DNA from: Patescibacteria group bacterium
GTDB taxonomy: Bacteria > Patescibacteriota > Patescibacteriia > JACRDY01
Length of the DNA stretch: 64,000 nucleotides
NCBI GenBank assembly: GCA_041650515.1
Contig: JBAZLA010000002.1
Location: forward strand, 39,572-103,571
Direction: 5' to 3'
The position numbers were made by a program, and so were the translations under genes. Of the stretch, positions 2,156 to 41,899 are shown in pieces (within the stretch, counting starts at the first letter, position 1; each line of letters starts with the position of its first letter). The notes beneath the pieces are model-generated. The model had not been told where the DNA came from. It saw nothing but the letters and a program-made list of their open reading frames with translations, and searched no databases.

Positions 2156-3784
2156 TCAAGATAAGGGTTGTATATTCTCTAAACTATTATTAATCACCTT
2201 AATCAAATCCTTTGGCTCGGTATTGCCTTTAAACACATAAGCCGCGGCACCCAACTTTTTGGCTTTTTCGCGGTCTTGATCAGTATTAAGATTGGTAAAA
2301 ATAATCACAGGAATTTTTGATATCGCCGGATCTTTTTTAGCTGCCTCCAAAAAACTCCAACCTTGTTCGGCAACGGTATAAACCGAACCATCTTCCCTCT
2401 TCTGGGGTAAAATGATATCTAACAAAACCACATCGACGGAGACTTCTCTCAACTTAGCCAAAGCGGTTTTAACATCTGACACTGAATAAAAATTAAAACC
2501 GTGGCTTCTCAAATAGGAGTCATACATTTCAACTAACAACTGCTGATCTTCAATCAGAAGAATACTGGGACGCTGTTTAGCCTTAGCTACGGTGTTCTTA
2601 CTGTTTCTTACTCCTACCTTAAACTGGGCGGCTAAAACCTTTTCTTTAGTTTCCGCTTGACCAGTAGAAATCGGCAAAATAAAGCTAAAAGTCGTACCCT
2701 TACCAATTTCAGTTTTTTCTAACTCTAATTTTCCACCGCAGCCACCCACAACTTTTTGAGCAATATATAGACCCAAGCCCGATCCATCGGGATGTAAATT
2801 ATTGGCGCTATCGCCACGGGAAAACTTGCGAAACATTCTTTTTTGATCATCGAGCGATATACCGGCACCAGTATCTGTAACAAAAACTTTCAGATACTCA
2901 CTAGTATTTTGTTTAACTTTGCCGAGTGAAACAGTCACACTACCAGCCGGTGTATAAAAAATAGCATTATCTAATAGATTAGAAATTACGTGAACAATCT
3001 TTTTGGGATCACAAAAAACTTTAGGCACCTCAAAAGATGGCTTCTGATAAACCAATTTGATTTTCCTTTCTTGAGTAATCTTTAACAATCGCTTAGTATC
3101 AACTTGATCATTAATAATCCGTTCGATATCGACAACGGCGAAGTTAGCTTGCATCTCTTGACCTTCCAGCTCAAAAGCATCCCAAAAATCTTGAATTGTA
3201 TTACTCATCGCTTCTAAACCCGAACCCAAATATATCAATGCCTGTTTTGGCGGCAAAGTCTTTTCCTGCAACATCGAATAGGCGCTGCGCATCACTGATA
3301 GCGGCGTATTGAGCTGATGATTAACTACCCGCAAAAAATCTGACTTCATGCCTAGCAACTCTTCAAGATGCTTGTTTTTATCACTAATTCTGCTGGTCTG
3401 TTCGGCCACTTTACTTTCTAGATTATCAGTCAATTCTTTTAGAGCATCGGTTGCTCTTTTTAAGGAAAAATTGGCTTTGATAATTCTCTCAGTACTACGG
3501 TTAAAAAAATAACCGTAGACAATGACCAGAATAAAAACTGTGATCACTACCAACCAGGAGAGTCTTTTCTCAATCAAAATAAAGAGTATAAAAGCCAACG
3601 CTATTAAGAATAAACTAATGACTTGATATTGGAGGAAGAGACAACGGCGAAATTTAAATTCGCAGTACTGACAACGCCGGTATGGAGCATAGCCCAAATT
3701 TTTTACCAGCCAACAATCATTGTTGCGATAATCATCACCACCAATTTTTTTACCACCGTTTTGATTTTTATCAGCCTCCACCAT
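2156..3784 (-). CDS. Hybrid sensor histidine kinase with a C-terminal receiver (REC) domain
   Basis: 542 aa with an N-terminal Cys4 stretch (CWLVKN..RRCQYCEFKFRRC), two TM helices, a coiled coil, a HisKA-like phospho-acceptor His region (VVNHQLNTPL) and an HATPase_c domain (TDTGAGI, GLGLYIAQ). The REC domain carries LLIEDQ and VLLDIILP. Confidence 0.85.
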   Translation of the reverse strand: MVEADKNQNGGKKIGGDDYRNNDCWLVKNLGYAPYRRCQYCEFKFRRCLFLQYQVISLFLIALAFILFILIEKRLSWLVVITVFILVIVYGYFFNRSTERIIKANFSLKRATDALKELTDNLESKVAEQTSRISDKNKHLEELLGMKSDFLRVVNHQLNTPLSVMRSAYSMLQEKTLPPKQALIYLGSGLEAMSNTIQDFWDAFELEGQEMQANFAVVDIERIINDQVDTKRLLKITQERKIKLVYQKPSFEVPKVFCDPKKIVHVISNLLDNAIFYTPAGSVTVSLGKVKQNTSEYLKVFVTDTGAGISLDDQKRMFRKFSRGDSANNLHPDGSGLGLYIAQKVVGGCGGKLELEKTEIGKGTTFSFILPISTGQAETKEKVLAAQFKVGVRNSKNTVAKAKQRPSILLIEDQQLLVEMYDSYLRSHGFNFYSVSDVKTALAKLREVSVDVVLLDIILPQKREDGSVYTVAEQGWSFLEAAKKDPAISKIPVIIFTNLNTDQDREKAKKLGAAAYVFKGNTEPKDLIKVINNSLENIQPLS

Positions 3785-3803
3785 ATCTAATAGTTAGACG
3801 TTT

Positions 3804-4229
3804 CTATGGATTATTTTTACTGAGTAACTTCTTGAATAAAACGTACATCAAGGTCGCCACGCAAAAACCAACAAAACAAGCCAAAAATATCAATAGATCC
3901 ACGACTAAGATATAAATCCAGGCAAATTCAACAAATTTGCCGAAATAGAGAAACAAAAAACCAATCAGCAGGAGTGCCCCGGTCATGCCGGCGACGAAAC
4001 CTAGCTCTCCCGAATCTTTCTGAACTGATGATAGGCCGCCTTTTTTAAAAACTAAAACGTGGAATTGATAAGGAATATTGAGTTTTAAAGATAAAGCTCC
4101 CACAATTGTCAAAAGGCCAGCCGCTAAAACCAGCCACTGATTATGAATTAAAAAAGCAACCAAAACCAAAATTCCATAAGTGGCCCGAGAGAATCTCAAC
4201 GACTTGTCATAAATTGAACATTGTTGCAT
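3804..4229 (-). CDS. Hypothetical integral membrane protein (about 4 TM helices)
   Basis: 141-aa ORF that is hydrophobic throughout. No recognisable catalytic motif. Confidence 0.5.
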   Translation of the reverse strand: MQQCSIYDKSLRFSRATYGILVLVAFLIHNQWLVLAAGLLTIVGALSLKLNIPYQFHVLVFKKGGLSSVQKDSGELGFVAGMTGALLLIGFLFLYFGKFVEFAWIYILVVDLLIFLACFVGFCVATLMYVLFKKLLSKNNP

Positions 4230-4257
4230 GTTTTTTAGAATTAATTTTATTTATATT

Positions 4258-5589
4258 TTACTTATTATTCTCAATAATTTTTTTTACAGCCAGGCATGCT
4301 TGTCTAACATCTTTAATATCATTATAAATGTAAAAGCTCAGTCGGCAACTAGCTGGAGGGTCCAACTTATAATAATGATGCGCTAGAGTGGCACAATGAC
4401 AGCCAGCTCTGGATTCTACACCCAACTTGCTTAACTCCTCGGCAATTTTGAAAGGATCTTTATCTTTATGAGTAAAAGCAACTAAAGAAGTTCTGCCCTC
4501 AAAATTTTTGGGACCAAAAATATTTAATGACGGGATTTCGCCTAATATTTTTAGTGCCTCACTAATCAAAGCTTTTTCGTGAGATTCAATATTTTCCATC
4601 GCCTTTTTAACATCCGAGGCTTCTATTTTTTTATCCGTCATAAAATATCGATATTTTCCCGGATTTAAAGAAAAATCCATCAATAGTCTCAGGGCTTGAG
4701 CGGAAAGAATCGTTCCCAAAATATTGGGCGTTCCGGCCGTAAATTTCCAAGGTAATAAATTATAGCCAACTTTTTCTGGACTCACTTGTCCTTCGGCAAT
4801 CATATCGCCACCGTAAAGAAACGGCCGCATCTTTTCTAGGAGTTCTTCTCTGGCGTACAAAGCGCCGACACCAAAAGGCGCTAACATTTTATGAAAAGAC
4901 CAAGCAAAAAAATCTACCCCCAATTCACTAACATTAACAAAAGTGTTAGGGACAACTTGAGCGCCATCAATTAAAAAATAAGATTTTTTTTCGCCATTCG
5001 GTTGAAGGTAGCCGCTAGCATCAGCGATCTCCCTGATTTTCCTGATCGGAATTTTAGTGCCTAAAAAATTTGAGGCGCCAGTGCAACAGACTATTTTAGT
5101 CCGATTGTCGACCAAAGATTTTAAATGATTCAAATCAAGCTCGCCGGTCTCTTTATCAAATTTAGCTAGCCGACATTCAACATTGACTCCGAACTTAGGC
5201 AATATTTCCTTACACAACCCGTACCAAGGAACATAATTAGAATTATGTTCCATCAAGGTGGTGACTAAATTGTCGCCATCTTTAAATTCAGTCATCAAAG
5301 AATACATGACCGAATTAATTGCCTCGGTGGCATTGCGATATAAGATAATATTTTTCCGAGAAGGAGCACCGATAAACTGGGCGATGGTGTCATAAGAAGA
5401 TTCAAACTTCTCGGTAGTTAGAAGCGAAGACTCTGCCTGACCCCGATGGACATTATCATACTGGACTATAAGCTTCTTAAATAAATCCAAAAGCTGAGCC
5501 GGAACCTGAGTACTAGCTGCATTATTAGAAACTACCCTCCCCGCCTTGATGGCCGGGAAAAATTTCCTGATCTTTTTTGTATTAATCAT
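4258..5589 (-). CDS. Cysteine desulfurase, class V aminotransferase (SufS/CsdA-like)
   Basis: 443 aa. PLP-lysine context SFHKMLAPFGVGALY and active-site Cys context RAGCHCA, typical of SufS-type desulfurases. Confidence 0.85.
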   Translation of the reverse strand: MINTKKIRKFFPAIKAGRVVSNNAASTQVPAQLLDLFKKLIVQYDNVHRGQAESSLLTTEKFESSYDTIAQFIGAPSRKNIILYRNATEAINSVMYSLMTEFKDGDNLVTTLMEHNSNYVPWYGLCKEILPKFGVNVECRLAKFDKETGELDLNHLKSLVDNRTKIVCCTGASNFLGTKIPIRKIREIADASGYLQPNGEKKSYFLIDGAQVVPNTFVNVSELGVDFFAWSFHKMLAPFGVGALYAREELLEKMRPFLYGGDMIAEGQVSPEKVGYNLLPWKFTAGTPNILGTILSAQALRLLMDFSLNPGKYRYFMTDKKIEASDVKKAMENIESHEKALISEALKILGEIPSLNIFGPKNFEGRTSLVAFTHKDKDPFKIAEELSKLGVESRAGCHCATLAHHYYKLDPPASCRLSFYIYNDIKDVRQACLAVKKIIENNK

Positions 5590-5611: not shown

Positions 5612-5647
5612 ACTTCAAATTATAGCATAACTTCAAATTATAGCATA
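5612..5647. repeat. Perfect 18-bp tandem duplication (acttcaaattatagcata x2), each copy containing a TATAAT box in minus orientation, immediately upstream of the desulfurase start
   Basis: Direct reading of the sequence. Confidence 0.7.
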
Positions 5648-5744
5648 TTCTCAAAGTCAAAACAATAAAACAAATTAAGATACTCAAAATCTTGACATAT
5701 TTGAATAATAATGGTACCAATAAAATACCAAACAGGAGGATGCG

Positions 5745-5933
5745 ATGAAAACGTTGAAGATCATCATGATTCTGATCGCGGTCGTGGTTGGACTCGTTGT
5801 CGGCCTTACCTCCGGCAACTGGATCGCCGGCCTGCTGGTCGGCGCGATCTTCTTCGGCCTCTGGGCCTTCATGACCCACAAGGGCTGGTGTCCCCTTTGC
5901 CGCTATGTCGCGGCCAAAGAGAAAAAGCGGTAA
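5745..5933 (+). CDS. Small GC3-rich two-TM membrane protein (62 aa), possibly horizontally acquired
   Basis: AGGAGG lies 6 nt before the ATG. Third codon positions are almost all G or C, unlike the flanking genes. The product is hydrophobic with a C-terminal CPLC motif. The overlapping ORFs 5610..5879, 5684..5881 and 5711..5971 are regarded as artefacts of the high GC content. Confidence 0.5.
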   Translation: MKTLKIIMILIAVVVGLVVGLTSGNWIAGLLVGAIFFGLWAFMTHKGWCPLCRYVAAKEKKR

Positions 5934-5996
5934 AAAAACCGCTTCTCCACACTTACCTACTACCGCCTTAGAGCCTATCAGCTCGGCGGTTTTTTT
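5932..5996 (+). terminator. A7-CCGC ... GCGG-T7 inverted repeat enclosing a ~45-nt loop. Putative terminator or structured 3' end of the small ORF.
   Basis: AAAAAAACCGC at 5932-5942 is complementary to GCGGTTTTTTT at 5986-5996. Confidence 0.35.
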
Positions 5997-6134
5997 ATAA
6001 ACGTTCCTTAGCCTTAACTATCTACTAAAAAAACGCCTGGCGAGCGATCTTTTGATTGCCCTTTCGGGTAAAGTTTATTATTAAGTATTATTATCGACTT
6101 TGACCCAAAATGCATTACTCCCAAAGCAACGGCT

Positions 6135-6467
6135 TTATAATTCACAGATATCACTCATCTCTGAACAAGCGACAGAACTCAAAATACAGCTAATTTTGTT
6201 GGCGCTCCAATCAGCGCACTCTTCCAGACAAGTGTTTAAACCATCTTCGAATAAAACATGGTCAGCGTTGGGGACTAAAGTTAAACATTTGTTCACATAG
6301 TTGGCACAAGCGGCTTCGCAATCGTTACCGCTAAGCGGTAAATTTGTCTCCTCGGCGGCTGGTGTTAGATCATTAATCGGACGATCGGACGCGCTTTTGA
6401 CACAACCACTGAGAAACAATGCTCCGACTACCAGCATTAGTCCCAGGGTTAAAATTTTTTTGGTCAT
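6135..6467 (-). CDS. Cys-rich secreted lipoprotein
   Basis: Signal peptide with lipobox (LFLSGC). The mature part has 8 cysteines. Confidence 0.6.
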   Translation of the reverse strand: MTKKILTLGLMLVVGALFLSGCVKSASDRPINDLTPAAEETNLPLSGNDCEAACANYVNKCLTLVPNADHVLFEDGLNTCLEECADWSANKISCILSSVACSEMSDICEL

Positions 6468-9533: not shown

Positions 9534-9608
9534 TGGTGACCCTACCGGGACTCGAACCCGGGTTTACGCCGTGAGAGGGCGTCGTCCTAACCACTAGACG
9601 ATAAGGCC
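9534..9608 (-). tRNA. tRNA-Glu (anticodon CUC)
   Basis: Manual cloverleaf fold. The acceptor stem GGCCTTA/TAGGGTC pairs with two G-U wobbles. D stem is GTCT/GGAC. Anticodon stem is ACGCC/GGCGT with loop CTCTCAC. T arm is CCGGG-TTCGAGT-CCCGG, with discriminator A and an encoded CCA. Confidence 0.8.
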
Positions 9609-9614
9609 GTATTT

Positions 9615-10137
9615 AGTATATAGGTCTTAGTATGCAGTATGCGGGAAAATTAAACAATTTTTAATAAAAGATTTAGATGATTTTAATGCCTAGTTTTTTA
9701 TTATTCTAATATTAATTAATAAATACAACTTTATGTCGGAAAAAATCAAATCCTTCACCGATCTTATAGCCTGGCAAAGGGCCCGCGAGCTAGTCTTGAC
9801 AATTTATAAAGCGACTGAAAATTTTCCTAAAAAAGAAATCTACGGATTGACAGACCAAATGCGCCGAGCTGCCGTCTCGGTTACTTCTAATATCGCCGAA
9901 GGCTTTAGCCGAAAATCCAAAGCCGACAAGGCCCATTTCTACACTATAGCTAAAAGTTCACTAGTTGAGCTACAGAACCAACTGATTATTGCCAAAGATA
10001 TTAACTATCTAGAAAATAACTATTATCAAGCAACCTACATTATAACTATTAATTGCAGCAAACTATTAGTTGGTTTAATCCGCGCCGCTGAAGCAAAACA
10101 GTCTTCCCCGCATACTACATACTAAGACCTGCATACT
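9615..10137 (+). mobile_element. IVS-like cassette: a 31-bp imperfect inverted-repeat pair (9615..9645 and 10107..10137) flanking a four-helix-bundle protein gene, inserted between tRNA-Glu and murF
   Basis: AGTATATAGGTCTTAGTATGCAGTATGCGGG on the left, and on the right the reverse complement of cccgcatactacatactaagacctgcatact. The two match at 28 of 31 positions. Confidence 0.45.
9733..10125 (+). CDS. Four-helix-bundle protein (23S rRNA intervening-sequence protein family; same fold family as DGR Avd)
   Basis: 130 aa. FTDLIAWQRARELVL, DQMRRAAVSVTSNIAEG and AKSSLVELQNQL match the family (PF05635/TIGR02436) closely. Confidence 0.85.
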   Translation: MSEKIKSFTDLIAWQRARELVLTIYKATENFPKKEIYGLTDQMRRAAVSVTSNIAEGFSRKSKADKAHFYTIAKSSLVELQNQLIIAKDINYLENNYYQATYIITINCSKLLVGLIRAAEAKQSSPHTTY

Positions 10138-13258: not shown

Positions 13259-13346
13259 ATGGCTATTTTAGCAAAATTTTGTCTTATCTCCAAACAAAAA
13301 TCGGGGTGATATTTTTTACTTACCTATTATTAACTCTCCGAATCTA

Positions 13347-13535
13347 TAAATCTAGTTGGGGCCTGGGGCGGATGCGGCGCAGAGTCCCGACCCGGCCTCT
13401 TTGGTCTTTCCTTAGGGGCGGGACGGGTAGAACGAACTAAAGTTCAACAATGAACCGCGCCTCATTATGTCTCTTGGCGCAAAGAGACATAATCCCCAGG
13501 ACTTTTTTGCTACTTTTTTAGTCATAAAAAAGTAG
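13347..13535 (+). repeat. Structured repeat element, copy A. It is related to 35507..35646 and is a candidate ncRNA or MITE-like unit.
   Basis: Shares GGGGyCTGGGGCGrATrCGGCGCArAGTCCCG ... GGGACGGGTAGAACGAA ... AACAATGA ... CCCCAG ... TTTTTTGCTACTTTTTT-(6 nt)-AAAAAAGTAG with copy B. The closing helix shows compensatory changes. Confidence 0.6.
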
Positions 13536-41445: not shown

Positions 41446-41466
41446 ATAAGTCAGAGGAGGAGCACC

Positions 41467-41856
41467 ATGACAATGGAACGGGATTTATTGGCCCGTACTT
41501 TTGGCCTAGCCAACGGATGGCCGCCCGACGTTGCTGGAATAGTCAGCCGCGCTAGAACCATTTGGCAAATCGATGACCCCCACCGTCTGTCGACCGAGAT
41601 AATCAACCGAATCATTGTTGAACGGGACGGTAAAAAATTACTTCTTGACTATCTCGGCATTCTGCAGAAACTCCATAGGAGCGAAGGACCGACTGAGTCT
41701 GATTGGGAAAATTTAATTATCGTCTGGCACTGCTCAGTAGCTTTTTTGGCTAACAATCCAACAATGGATCAGTTTATGGCCAAATTCGGTTTTTGTGGTA
41801 ACCCAATGGATATCTATAATCGGTTATCGCACTATCACCTGTTTCGACCCGGTTAG
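41467..41856 (+). CDS. Hypothetical protein (129 aa) with a strong GGAGGAG ribosome-binding site
   Basis: The ORF has a near-consensus Shine-Dalgarno sequence, which is unusual locally. It is bracketed by terminators. Confidence 0.5.
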   Translation: MTMERDLLARTFGLANGWPPDVAGIVSRARTIWQIDDPHRLSTEIINRIIVERDGKKLLLDYLGILQKLHRSEGPTESDWENLIIVWHCSVAFLANNPTMDQFMAKFGFCGNPMDIYNRLSHYHLFRPG

Positions 41857-41866
41857 GCCAAACACC

Positions 41867-41899
41867 AAGCGGCTTCCTCATCCGAAGACCGCTTTTTTT
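41867..41899. terminator. Bulged hairpin plus T7 between the convergent genes 41467..41856 and miaA
   Basis: AAGCGGCTTC...GAAGACCGCTT followed by TTTTTTT. Confidence 0.5.

Follow-up and report, generated by a model that had tools for sequence, protein, structure and literature searches.

The locus and its annotation

The stretch of DNA analysed here (hereafter the window, 64,000 nucleotides from the genome of a Patescibacteria group bacterium) carries, in a gap of 545 bp between a gene for a class-V aminotransferase / cysteine desulfurase and a lipoprotein gene, a small open reading frame (ORF) of 62 codons, which is located exactly where an earlier note on this DNA had placed it and has the length given there. 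A methyltransferase gene is also among its neighbours, and the features in and around the ORF are collected in Table 1. The neighbouring proteins, and the name under which NCBI lists the identical protein, likewise point to a Patescibacteria (CPR) genome. The product is already on record as a hypothetical protein: the NCBI annotation follows the same frame, with a TTG start at codon 4 (WC480_01740, 59 aa). The gene calls of JGI, ENA and Logan chose the overlapping 86-aa frame instead, and the reason for this split of four pipelines over two frames is that gene calling based on codon models fails when a GC-rich insert sits in an AT-rich genome, a practical problem of annotation that this locus illustrates.

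Table 1. The 62-codon ORF, its expression signals, the overlapping frames and the flanking genes (positions are those of the window).
Feature	Position	Strand	Remarks
Cysteine desulfurase gene	4258..5589	-	Divergent from the 62-aa ORF; Pfam E 1.7e-85
Antisense shadow ORF, 89 aa	5610..5879	-	By-product
Antisense shadow ORF, 65 aa	5684..5881	-	By-product
Possible promoter	5692..5720	+	Recognised by eye: TTGACA 5692-5697, 17-nt spacer ending in TGG, TACCAA 5715-5720; weak
Overlapping ORF, 86 aa	5711..5971	+ (+2 frame)	GC1/2/3 0.75/0.47/0.39, a non-coding pattern; by-product of the GC block
Further overlapping ORF, 31 aa		+	
Shine-Dalgarno site AGGAGG	5734..5739	+	5 nt 5' of the ATG at 5745
62-aa ORF (MKTLK...AAKEKKR*)	5745..5933	+	Tail end of product CPLCRYVAAKEKKR; full product MKTLKIIMILIAVVVGLVVGLTSGNWIAGLLVGAIFFGLWAFMTHKGWCPLCRYVAAKEKKR; tryptic peptides IIMILIAVVVGLVVGLTSGNWIAGLLVGAIFFGLWAFMTHK and GWCPLCR
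Hairpin 1	5919..5947		Spans the stop codon of the 62-aa ORF; RNA fold
Hairpin 2 with U7	5962..5997	+	Stem 5962-5990, U7 5991-5997; intrinsic terminator of the small ORF; RNA fold
Cys-rich lipoprotein gene	6135..6467	-	Convergent with the 62-aa ORF; 110 aa, lipobox LSGC, without Pfam family

Composition and coding potential

The GC3-rich codons that the earlier note had described against AT3-rich neighbours are confirmed by the numbers: the ORF has a GC content of 0.57 and GC1/2/3 values of 0.51/0.40/0.81, in a window with 40.8% GC whose long ORFs (n = 44) have a GC3 of 0.39 (sd 0.04). The codon comparison proposed in that note was run against the window and places the ORF outside the host range, in the sense that 20,000 re-encodings of the same peptide with the synonymous codon usage of the window had a GC3 of 0.44 ± 0.057 and peaked at 0.69, whilst the observed value (about 0.81-0.82) stands at z = 6.7. 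Since the re-encoding falls short of what is observed, amino-acid content is not the cause of the bias. Among the 62-codon stretches of the long genes of the window the maximum GC3 is 0.61, and no ORF of 40-200 aa in the window reaches 0.7 besides the 62-aa ORF and its own antisense shadow. The block to which it belongs (5710-5995) is the top 150-nt GC peak of the 64-kb window (0.64), and the shift in composition is sharp, spanning about 260 bp. A chimeric ORF, with a foreign core and host-derived ends, was also considered and was ruled out, because, despite their AT-rich look, the first 10 codons have G or C at the third position in 8 cases.

An open frame of 62 codons is expected by chance at the base composition of the block with P ~0.11, so that openness alone means little and overlapping ORFs are to be expected. 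This, together with the preference of three pipelines for another frame, counts against reading the ORF as a gene. Other properties are more informative, namely a three-base GC periodicity whose contrast was reached in none of 200,000 permutations, with T at 43% of the second codon positions and G or C at 81% of the third, and a 17-residue hydropathy maximum of 3.09 in this frame versus at most 0.95 in the other five. Periodicity, the single hydrophobic frame and the terminator downstream indicate that the ORF is a genuine coding sequence in frame +1 with its start at 5745. The overlapping ORFs on both strands had been taken for by-products of the GC block, and this view is sustained, as they are expected by composition and show either a non-coding pattern or low-complexity products. 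Both antisense shadow ORFs run into the AT-rich promoter region, their products are of low complexity and without hydrophobic segments, and a third-position bias is common to one antisense frame by geometry.

Could the block instead be a structured non-coding RNA in which the ORF is incidental? In genomes rich in AT, islands of high GC are often RNAs, this one is the strongest of the window, and the predicted fold of 5730-5997 has z-scores of -4.0 and -4.2 on the two strands (-2.6 for the coding part alone). Nevertheless, much of that z-score comes from the two terminator hairpins, three-base periodicity and GC bias at third positions are properties of coding sequences, a coherent membrane hairpin appears in one frame only and Rfam gives no match near threshold for the GC block (the best, IsrM, has 19 bits against a threshold of 376), all of which makes a non-coding RNA very improbable here.

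Two further GC peaks were observed elsewhere in the window. The second highest, with GC up to 0.63, is an intergenic island of about 300 nt (58395-58705, minus strand) between a 263-aa ORF (57576..58367; a putative glutamate racemase, judged by eye) and an 89-aa ORF. Read on the minus strand, the island has a strong hairpin and U7 at its end, and its fold z-scores are -2.9 on that strand and -1.0 on the plus strand. No meaningful Rfam match was obtained at E <=1, and the island is a candidate for an unclassified structured RNA. The other peak (0.57, at 13328-13516) is intergenic, lies upstream of a penicillin-binding-protein gene and likewise has no meaningful Rfam match.

Expression signals

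The translation signal of the 62-aa ORF is as foreign to the genome as its codons. An AGGAGG at good spacing among neighbours with weak sites had been described before, and this is what was found: the spacing is 5 nt, and of the 44 long ORFs, whose leaders are A/T-rich, not one has GGAG, GAGG or AGGA as a core at a usable distance ahead of its first ATG. A scan that works without relying on start prediction, for AGGAGG followed 4-10 nt later by a start that opens at least 50 codons, gave only two cases in 64 kb (at 5745 and at 41467). A search of the literature for Shine-Dalgarno use in Patescibacteria yielded nothing usable. The ORF has alternative starts at codons 1, 4 and 8, of which the ATG at 5745 is preferred because of its 5-nt distance from AGGAGG. 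The fold predicted for the whole transcript pairs the Shine-Dalgarno site with part of the coding sequence downstream of it.

Over the two strands of the whole window the hexamer itself is observed 7 times, where base composition would predict about 21. The sole other ORF of the window with a canonical Shine-Dalgarno site is an orphan of 129 aa (41467-41856, plus strand), with GAGGAGGAG at ~41454-41462 and a terminator at ~41858-41898. It lies between two terminators and has no Pfam match. GC is elevated at its 5' end, and with a GC3 of 0.48 it exceeds the host mean by about 2 sd. This ORF may be a second, older acquisition.

Regarding transcription initiation, the promoter candidate of Table 1 sits in the AT-rich, host-like spacer. 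Its -35 box is perfect and lies 47 nt 5' of the ATG, its -10 box agrees at only 3 of 6 positions, and the candidate is not listed by the consensus promoter scan, in which no promoter antisense to the ORF was found either. The promoter is thus unconvincing, and this also weighs against the gene reading.

As to termination, the fold predicted for 5915-6005 has a free energy of -27.1 kcal/mol (z = -4.7). The structure of the form A7-CCGC...GCGG-T7 reported in the earlier note stands in part: the perfect 12-nt inverted repeat is present (5931-5942 / 5986-5997), but the predicted fold consists of two independent hairpins. The second of them was missed by the simple terminator scan because its stem has an internal bulge. 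The first, when read by eye on the minus strand, is followed by UUUUCUCUUU, a U-rich run, and may terminate the convergent lipoprotein gene, although the simple scan lists no minus-strand terminator there.

With these signals in view, one may ask whether the ORF is more than an inert passenger, i.e., a foreign scrap that was coding in its donor, is unexpressed or unused in the present genome and will decay. The lack of a convincing promoter speaks for such a passenger, as does a host that is essentially devoid of Shine-Dalgarno-led genes (such a host may translate the ORF poorly), and so does the absence of homologues, the protein being the one member of its cluster. Conversely, the start codon, the Shine-Dalgarno site and the terminator are intact and the frame is full-length, a perfect TTGACA stands 47 nt before the ATG, and Patescibacteria have small genomes that are generally thought to shed useless DNA. 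An inert passenger is, on balance, unlikely, and the reading of the ORF as a gene is preferred.

Genomic context and assembly

Across many Patescibacteria, the cysteine desulfurase is conserved at 80-86% identity. At seven loci with desulfurase relatives, the downstream operon is kept (a cysteine-synthase-like PALP protein, DUF4395, a histidine kinase and response regulators), and other genes lie upstream of the desulfurase (SAICAR synthase, ribosomal proteins and PMT glycosyltransferases, among others). In none of the seven, which belong to distant relatives and have 84-86%-identical desulfurases among them, was there a tblastn match to the 62-aa ORF or a GC island of comparable contrast. On the other flank, the lipoprotein belongs to a narrow, lineage-specific family with about 10 relatives in 5.8 billion clusters. 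Its closest relative (69% identity; locus L066, 2265-2597) has in common with it a neighbourhood of Mur ligase and IVP protein but is itself followed by a DUF5320 gene, and the two contigs carrying this closest relative, from distant taxa, are without the 62-aa ORF. Orthologues with the same composition across the clade, which would speak for an old resident gene, were therefore found at none of the related loci, all of them from distant taxa. The ORF thus lies at a break of gene order and is absent from each relative compared, which supports acquisition but is no proof of it, because the relatives are distant and the genes on that side do not keep their order. Mobility genes, a tRNA target and convincing flanking direct or inverted repeats were all sought at the ORF, and none was found.

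Several observations concern the neighbourhood in its own right. About 100 bp upstream of the ORF, an 18-bp unit (ACTTCAAATTATAGCATA) occurs as an exact tandem duplication (5612-5647). The minus-strand sequence of each copy, TATGCTATAATTTGAAGT, fits TGnTATAAT, which is a perfect extended -10 facing the cysteine desulfurase, and the repeat looks like a duplicated promoter element of that gene and not like an insertion scar. The operon of the desulfurase (2156-5589, minus strand) is conserved across the Patescibacteria relatives (L002-L004, L036-L039), and in the source genome PALP is missing from it and kinase and receiver are fused into a protein of 542 aa. Further along the window, at 9534-10125, a tRNA-Glu(CTC) adjoins the gene for a 130-aa protein of the 23S-rRNA-intervening-sequence / bAvd-like four-helix-bundle type (Pfam E 1.7e-37), a family that is also encountered beside the Mur ligase in L066.

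The abrupt change of composition over about 260 bp could in principle come from a chimeric assembly or from contamination by a GC-rich organism of the same sample. However, the GC block is flanked on either side by host-like sequence in long contigs, a separately assembled ENA contig of 104 kb is 100% identical over 581 bp across the region, and the overlapping 86-aa product is identical from JGI, ENA and Logan, on contigs of three size classes, besides being encoded in the NCBI genome (these assemblies may share some reads). A chimera, which the earlier note had named as the other way in which its claim could fail, is consequently not indicated, and an artefact of this kind can hardly be credited.

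Searches for relatives

Neither a word-index search of 5.8 billion protein clusters, in which the protein forms a single-member cluster, nor full HMMER against 1.84 billion representatives returned anything other than the NCBI copy of the same gene, it being kept in mind that, for a hydrophobic query of 62 residues at these database sizes, relatives below about 45-50% identity are undetectable. Scans with the back-translated peptide over genomes, metagenomes and viral contigs gave no confirmed relative (at least 600 candidate stretches in each of two scans). Independently of gene calling, a degenerate DNA motif for GWCPLCRY matched 31 times in 185,579 species genomes and 26 times in the metagenome collection, without a preceding hydrophobic stretch in any case, and these matches are read as chance, the count in the genome set being near the rough chance expectation. 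Searches by tblastn of phages and plasmids came back empty, and viral contigs were without match as well.

The earlier note had seen in the ORF something reminiscent of small membrane toxins or stress peptides, and had suggested a check against families such as Pmp3 and the type I toxins. The check lent this idea no support, since no model of Pfam, NCBIfam or PADLOC, and none of PHROGs, is significant with the 62-aa query. The marginal matches are Phage_holin_3_6 (E 0.062, 13.8 bits versus a cut-off of 28.4), Mycobacteriophage_TM (E 0.0055) and phrog_1443, of unknown function, which is the sole PHROG match (E 2e-4, residues 4-37, i.e., the first transmembrane helix and the start of the second).

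Among the candidates that were tried and set aside, the best PDB matches by sequence (PufY, E 0.17) and by Foldseek (E 3.9) were rejected as generic helical hairpins. A fragment of an ABC permease (BPD_transp_2, PF02653) was suggested by a blastn match of 82 nt with 78% identity to a gene of S. meliloti pSymA. At the protein level this Sinorhizobium match amounts to 10 of 20 residues and 23.5 bits, PF02653 does not match the 62-aa query and no permease appears at E <=0.001 among the 1.84 billion representatives. The match was rejected, as probably reflecting the compositional similarity of GC-rich transmembrane codons.

The predicted product

The two transmembrane segments claimed for the product hold up: two hydrophobic segments are present in the 62-aa frame only, and the AlphaFold2 model, made without an alignment, places helices at residues 3-23, 26-45 and 49-61 (mean pLDDT 74.6), the first two forming a membrane hairpin and the third a basic tail. 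The loop between the helices has 2-3 residues, and the C-terminal tail (THKGWCPLCRYVAAKEKKR) comprises 19 residues with a net charge of +4. Based on the basic ends (MKTLK and the +4 tail), the short loop and the positive-inside rule, the topology is probably N-in/C-in, with both termini cytoplasmic. Inspection by eye reveals the motifs G16xxxG20xxxG24, G29xxxG33 and H45xxxC49xxC52. GxxxG glycine-zipper motifs are typical drivers of tight helix packing and oligomerisation, and their presence in the two helices suggests one or the other for this product, whereas the juxtamembrane HxxxCxxC could serve in metal binding or redox sensing. A functional link with the neighbouring cysteine desulfurase by way of the CxxC was considered and is unsupported, because the pairing of the two genes is absent from all relatives.

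A hairpin of this kind invites the idea of a membrane-damaging peptide (a type I toxin, a holin-like protein or an exclusion protein of a mobile element), whose glycine-zipper oligomers would depolarise the membrane and would be restrained by RNA structure or by antisense RNA. The small size, the pair of hydrophobic helices followed by a charged C-terminus, the solitary position of a foreign gene with a strong ribosome-binding site, the pairing of that site in the predicted fold, the alternative starts at codons 1, 4 and 8 and the marginal matches to Phage_holin_3_6, Mycobacteriophage_TM and phrog_1443 would all suit it. Nonetheless, no toxin or holin model reaches threshold, the gene is present in a single copy, neither an endolysin nor phage genes are found nearby, phages, plasmids and viral contigs hold no match and the scan gives no antisense promoter. 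In addition, type I toxins usually have one helix. Taking both sides together, a membrane-damaging function appears distinctly unlikely.

Origin and possible role

The best explanation of these data is that a cassette of about 260 bp, made up of a Shine-Dalgarno site, the 62-codon ORF and an intrinsic terminator, would have been acquired fairly recently by an AT-rich Patescibacteria genome that otherwise makes barely any use of Shine-Dalgarno sites, and would have come to lie between the divergent promoter region of the conserved desulfurase operon and the 3' end of the lipoprotein gene. The donor was presumably a moderately GC-rich, Shine-Dalgarno-using organism whose genome, judging from GC3, may have had some 60-65% GC; in the ORF lysine is encoded equally often by AAA and AAG, which weakly argues against an actinobacterial donor of very high GC. 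The product would insert in the cytoplasmic membrane and function there either in oligomeric form or as an accessory subunit of a larger membrane protein. That the ORF is a real, recently acquired gene for a helical-hairpin membrane peptide is assigned a probability of roughly 0.6, and confidence in any specific activity of the peptide is far below that.

The description of the gene as horizontally acquired-looking is thus upheld by composition, by the foreign ribosome-binding signal and by absence at the related loci, with the donor not found. Acquisition, like the topology, the oligomerisation and any activity of the product, is something that we infer, in the case of acquisition from composition only, because no donor was identified. 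Against a recent transfer it can be held that neither donor nor homologue turned up, though a recognisable source is usual in such cases, an objection that is tempered by the low power of a short hydrophobic query.

A more specific scenario would be that the cassette was captured very recently from the GC-rich bacterium that serves as host to this organism, or that a new gene was born from DNA so captured, with the product serving as a peptide active on membranes where symbiont and host meet. The peptide would then be made by a Shine-Dalgarno mechanism that the other genes of the symbiont do not use. This scenario is decidedly improbable on present evidence, but if true it would provide a marker of host identity and an instance of gene flow from host to episymbiont that involves no more than one small ORF.

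Returning to the preferred reading, acquisition from a GC-rich donor in general, the gene, if real and expressed, would show a streamlined symbiont genome gaining one small membrane-protein gene together with foreign expression signals, and the composition of the donor could hint at the identity of the host organism. Otherwise, it amounts to one hypothetical small protein without relatives, with no tie to a larger question.

Comparison with known systems

Proteins of about 60 residues with two helices rich in Gly, Ala and Val and a very short loop are known from several families, such as Pmp3/YqaE, DUF2892/YgaP-like proteins and PufY/protein-U of the Rhodobacter RC-LH1 complex, and the 62-aa product is like them in all these respects. 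With DUF2892 it presumably has in common a Cys-Pro motif just past the second helix, which we take as a lead only. Neither Pmp3/YqaE (PF01679) nor DUF2892/YgaP-like (PF11127) is among the Pfam matches at E <=1, and no YgaP chain is among the PDB sequence matches at E <=10. The product would therefore resemble many small two-helix membrane proteins while appearing to be a member of none.

Both the class II holins and the type I toxins (Hok, Fst, TisB and the like) resemble the ORF in a short, hydrophobic product whose C-terminus is charged, a strong site for ribosome binding, potential alternative starts and a gene that stands alone and has a terminator of its own. The ORF differs from the toxins in having two helices and not one, and none of their models (Hok/Gef, Ldr, TisB, Ibs, Fst and others) is in the Pfam, NCBIfam and PADLOC results. 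The two transmembrane helices and charged C-terminal tail of class II holins are found in the product, whereas a profile match, an endolysin and a phage context are all absent at the ORF.

The spacing H45-x3-C49-x2-C52 is, as we read it by eye, presumably that of the ligand motif HxxxCxxC of the zinc-binding anti-sigma factors (ZAS proteins). Unlike them, the product is without an anti-sigma domain and bears the motif after its membrane helices, whereas theirs is in a cytoplasmic domain at the N-terminus; near the ORF there is no gene for a sigma factor. By analogy, the motif may hint at metal or redox chemistry, but at no more than that.

The closest parallel is with ORFan genes acquired by horizontal transfer, to which the ORF is alike in its GC3 and codon usage outside the host range, its foreign translation signal, its absence from related loci and its site at a gene-order break. 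It differs from them in being a single cassette of 62 codons and not an island, in the lack of mobility genes and in that its donor was not found. A compositionally atypical orphan at a gene-order break is a well-known phenomenon; what is particular here is its tiny size and a host that scarcely uses Shine-Dalgarno sites.
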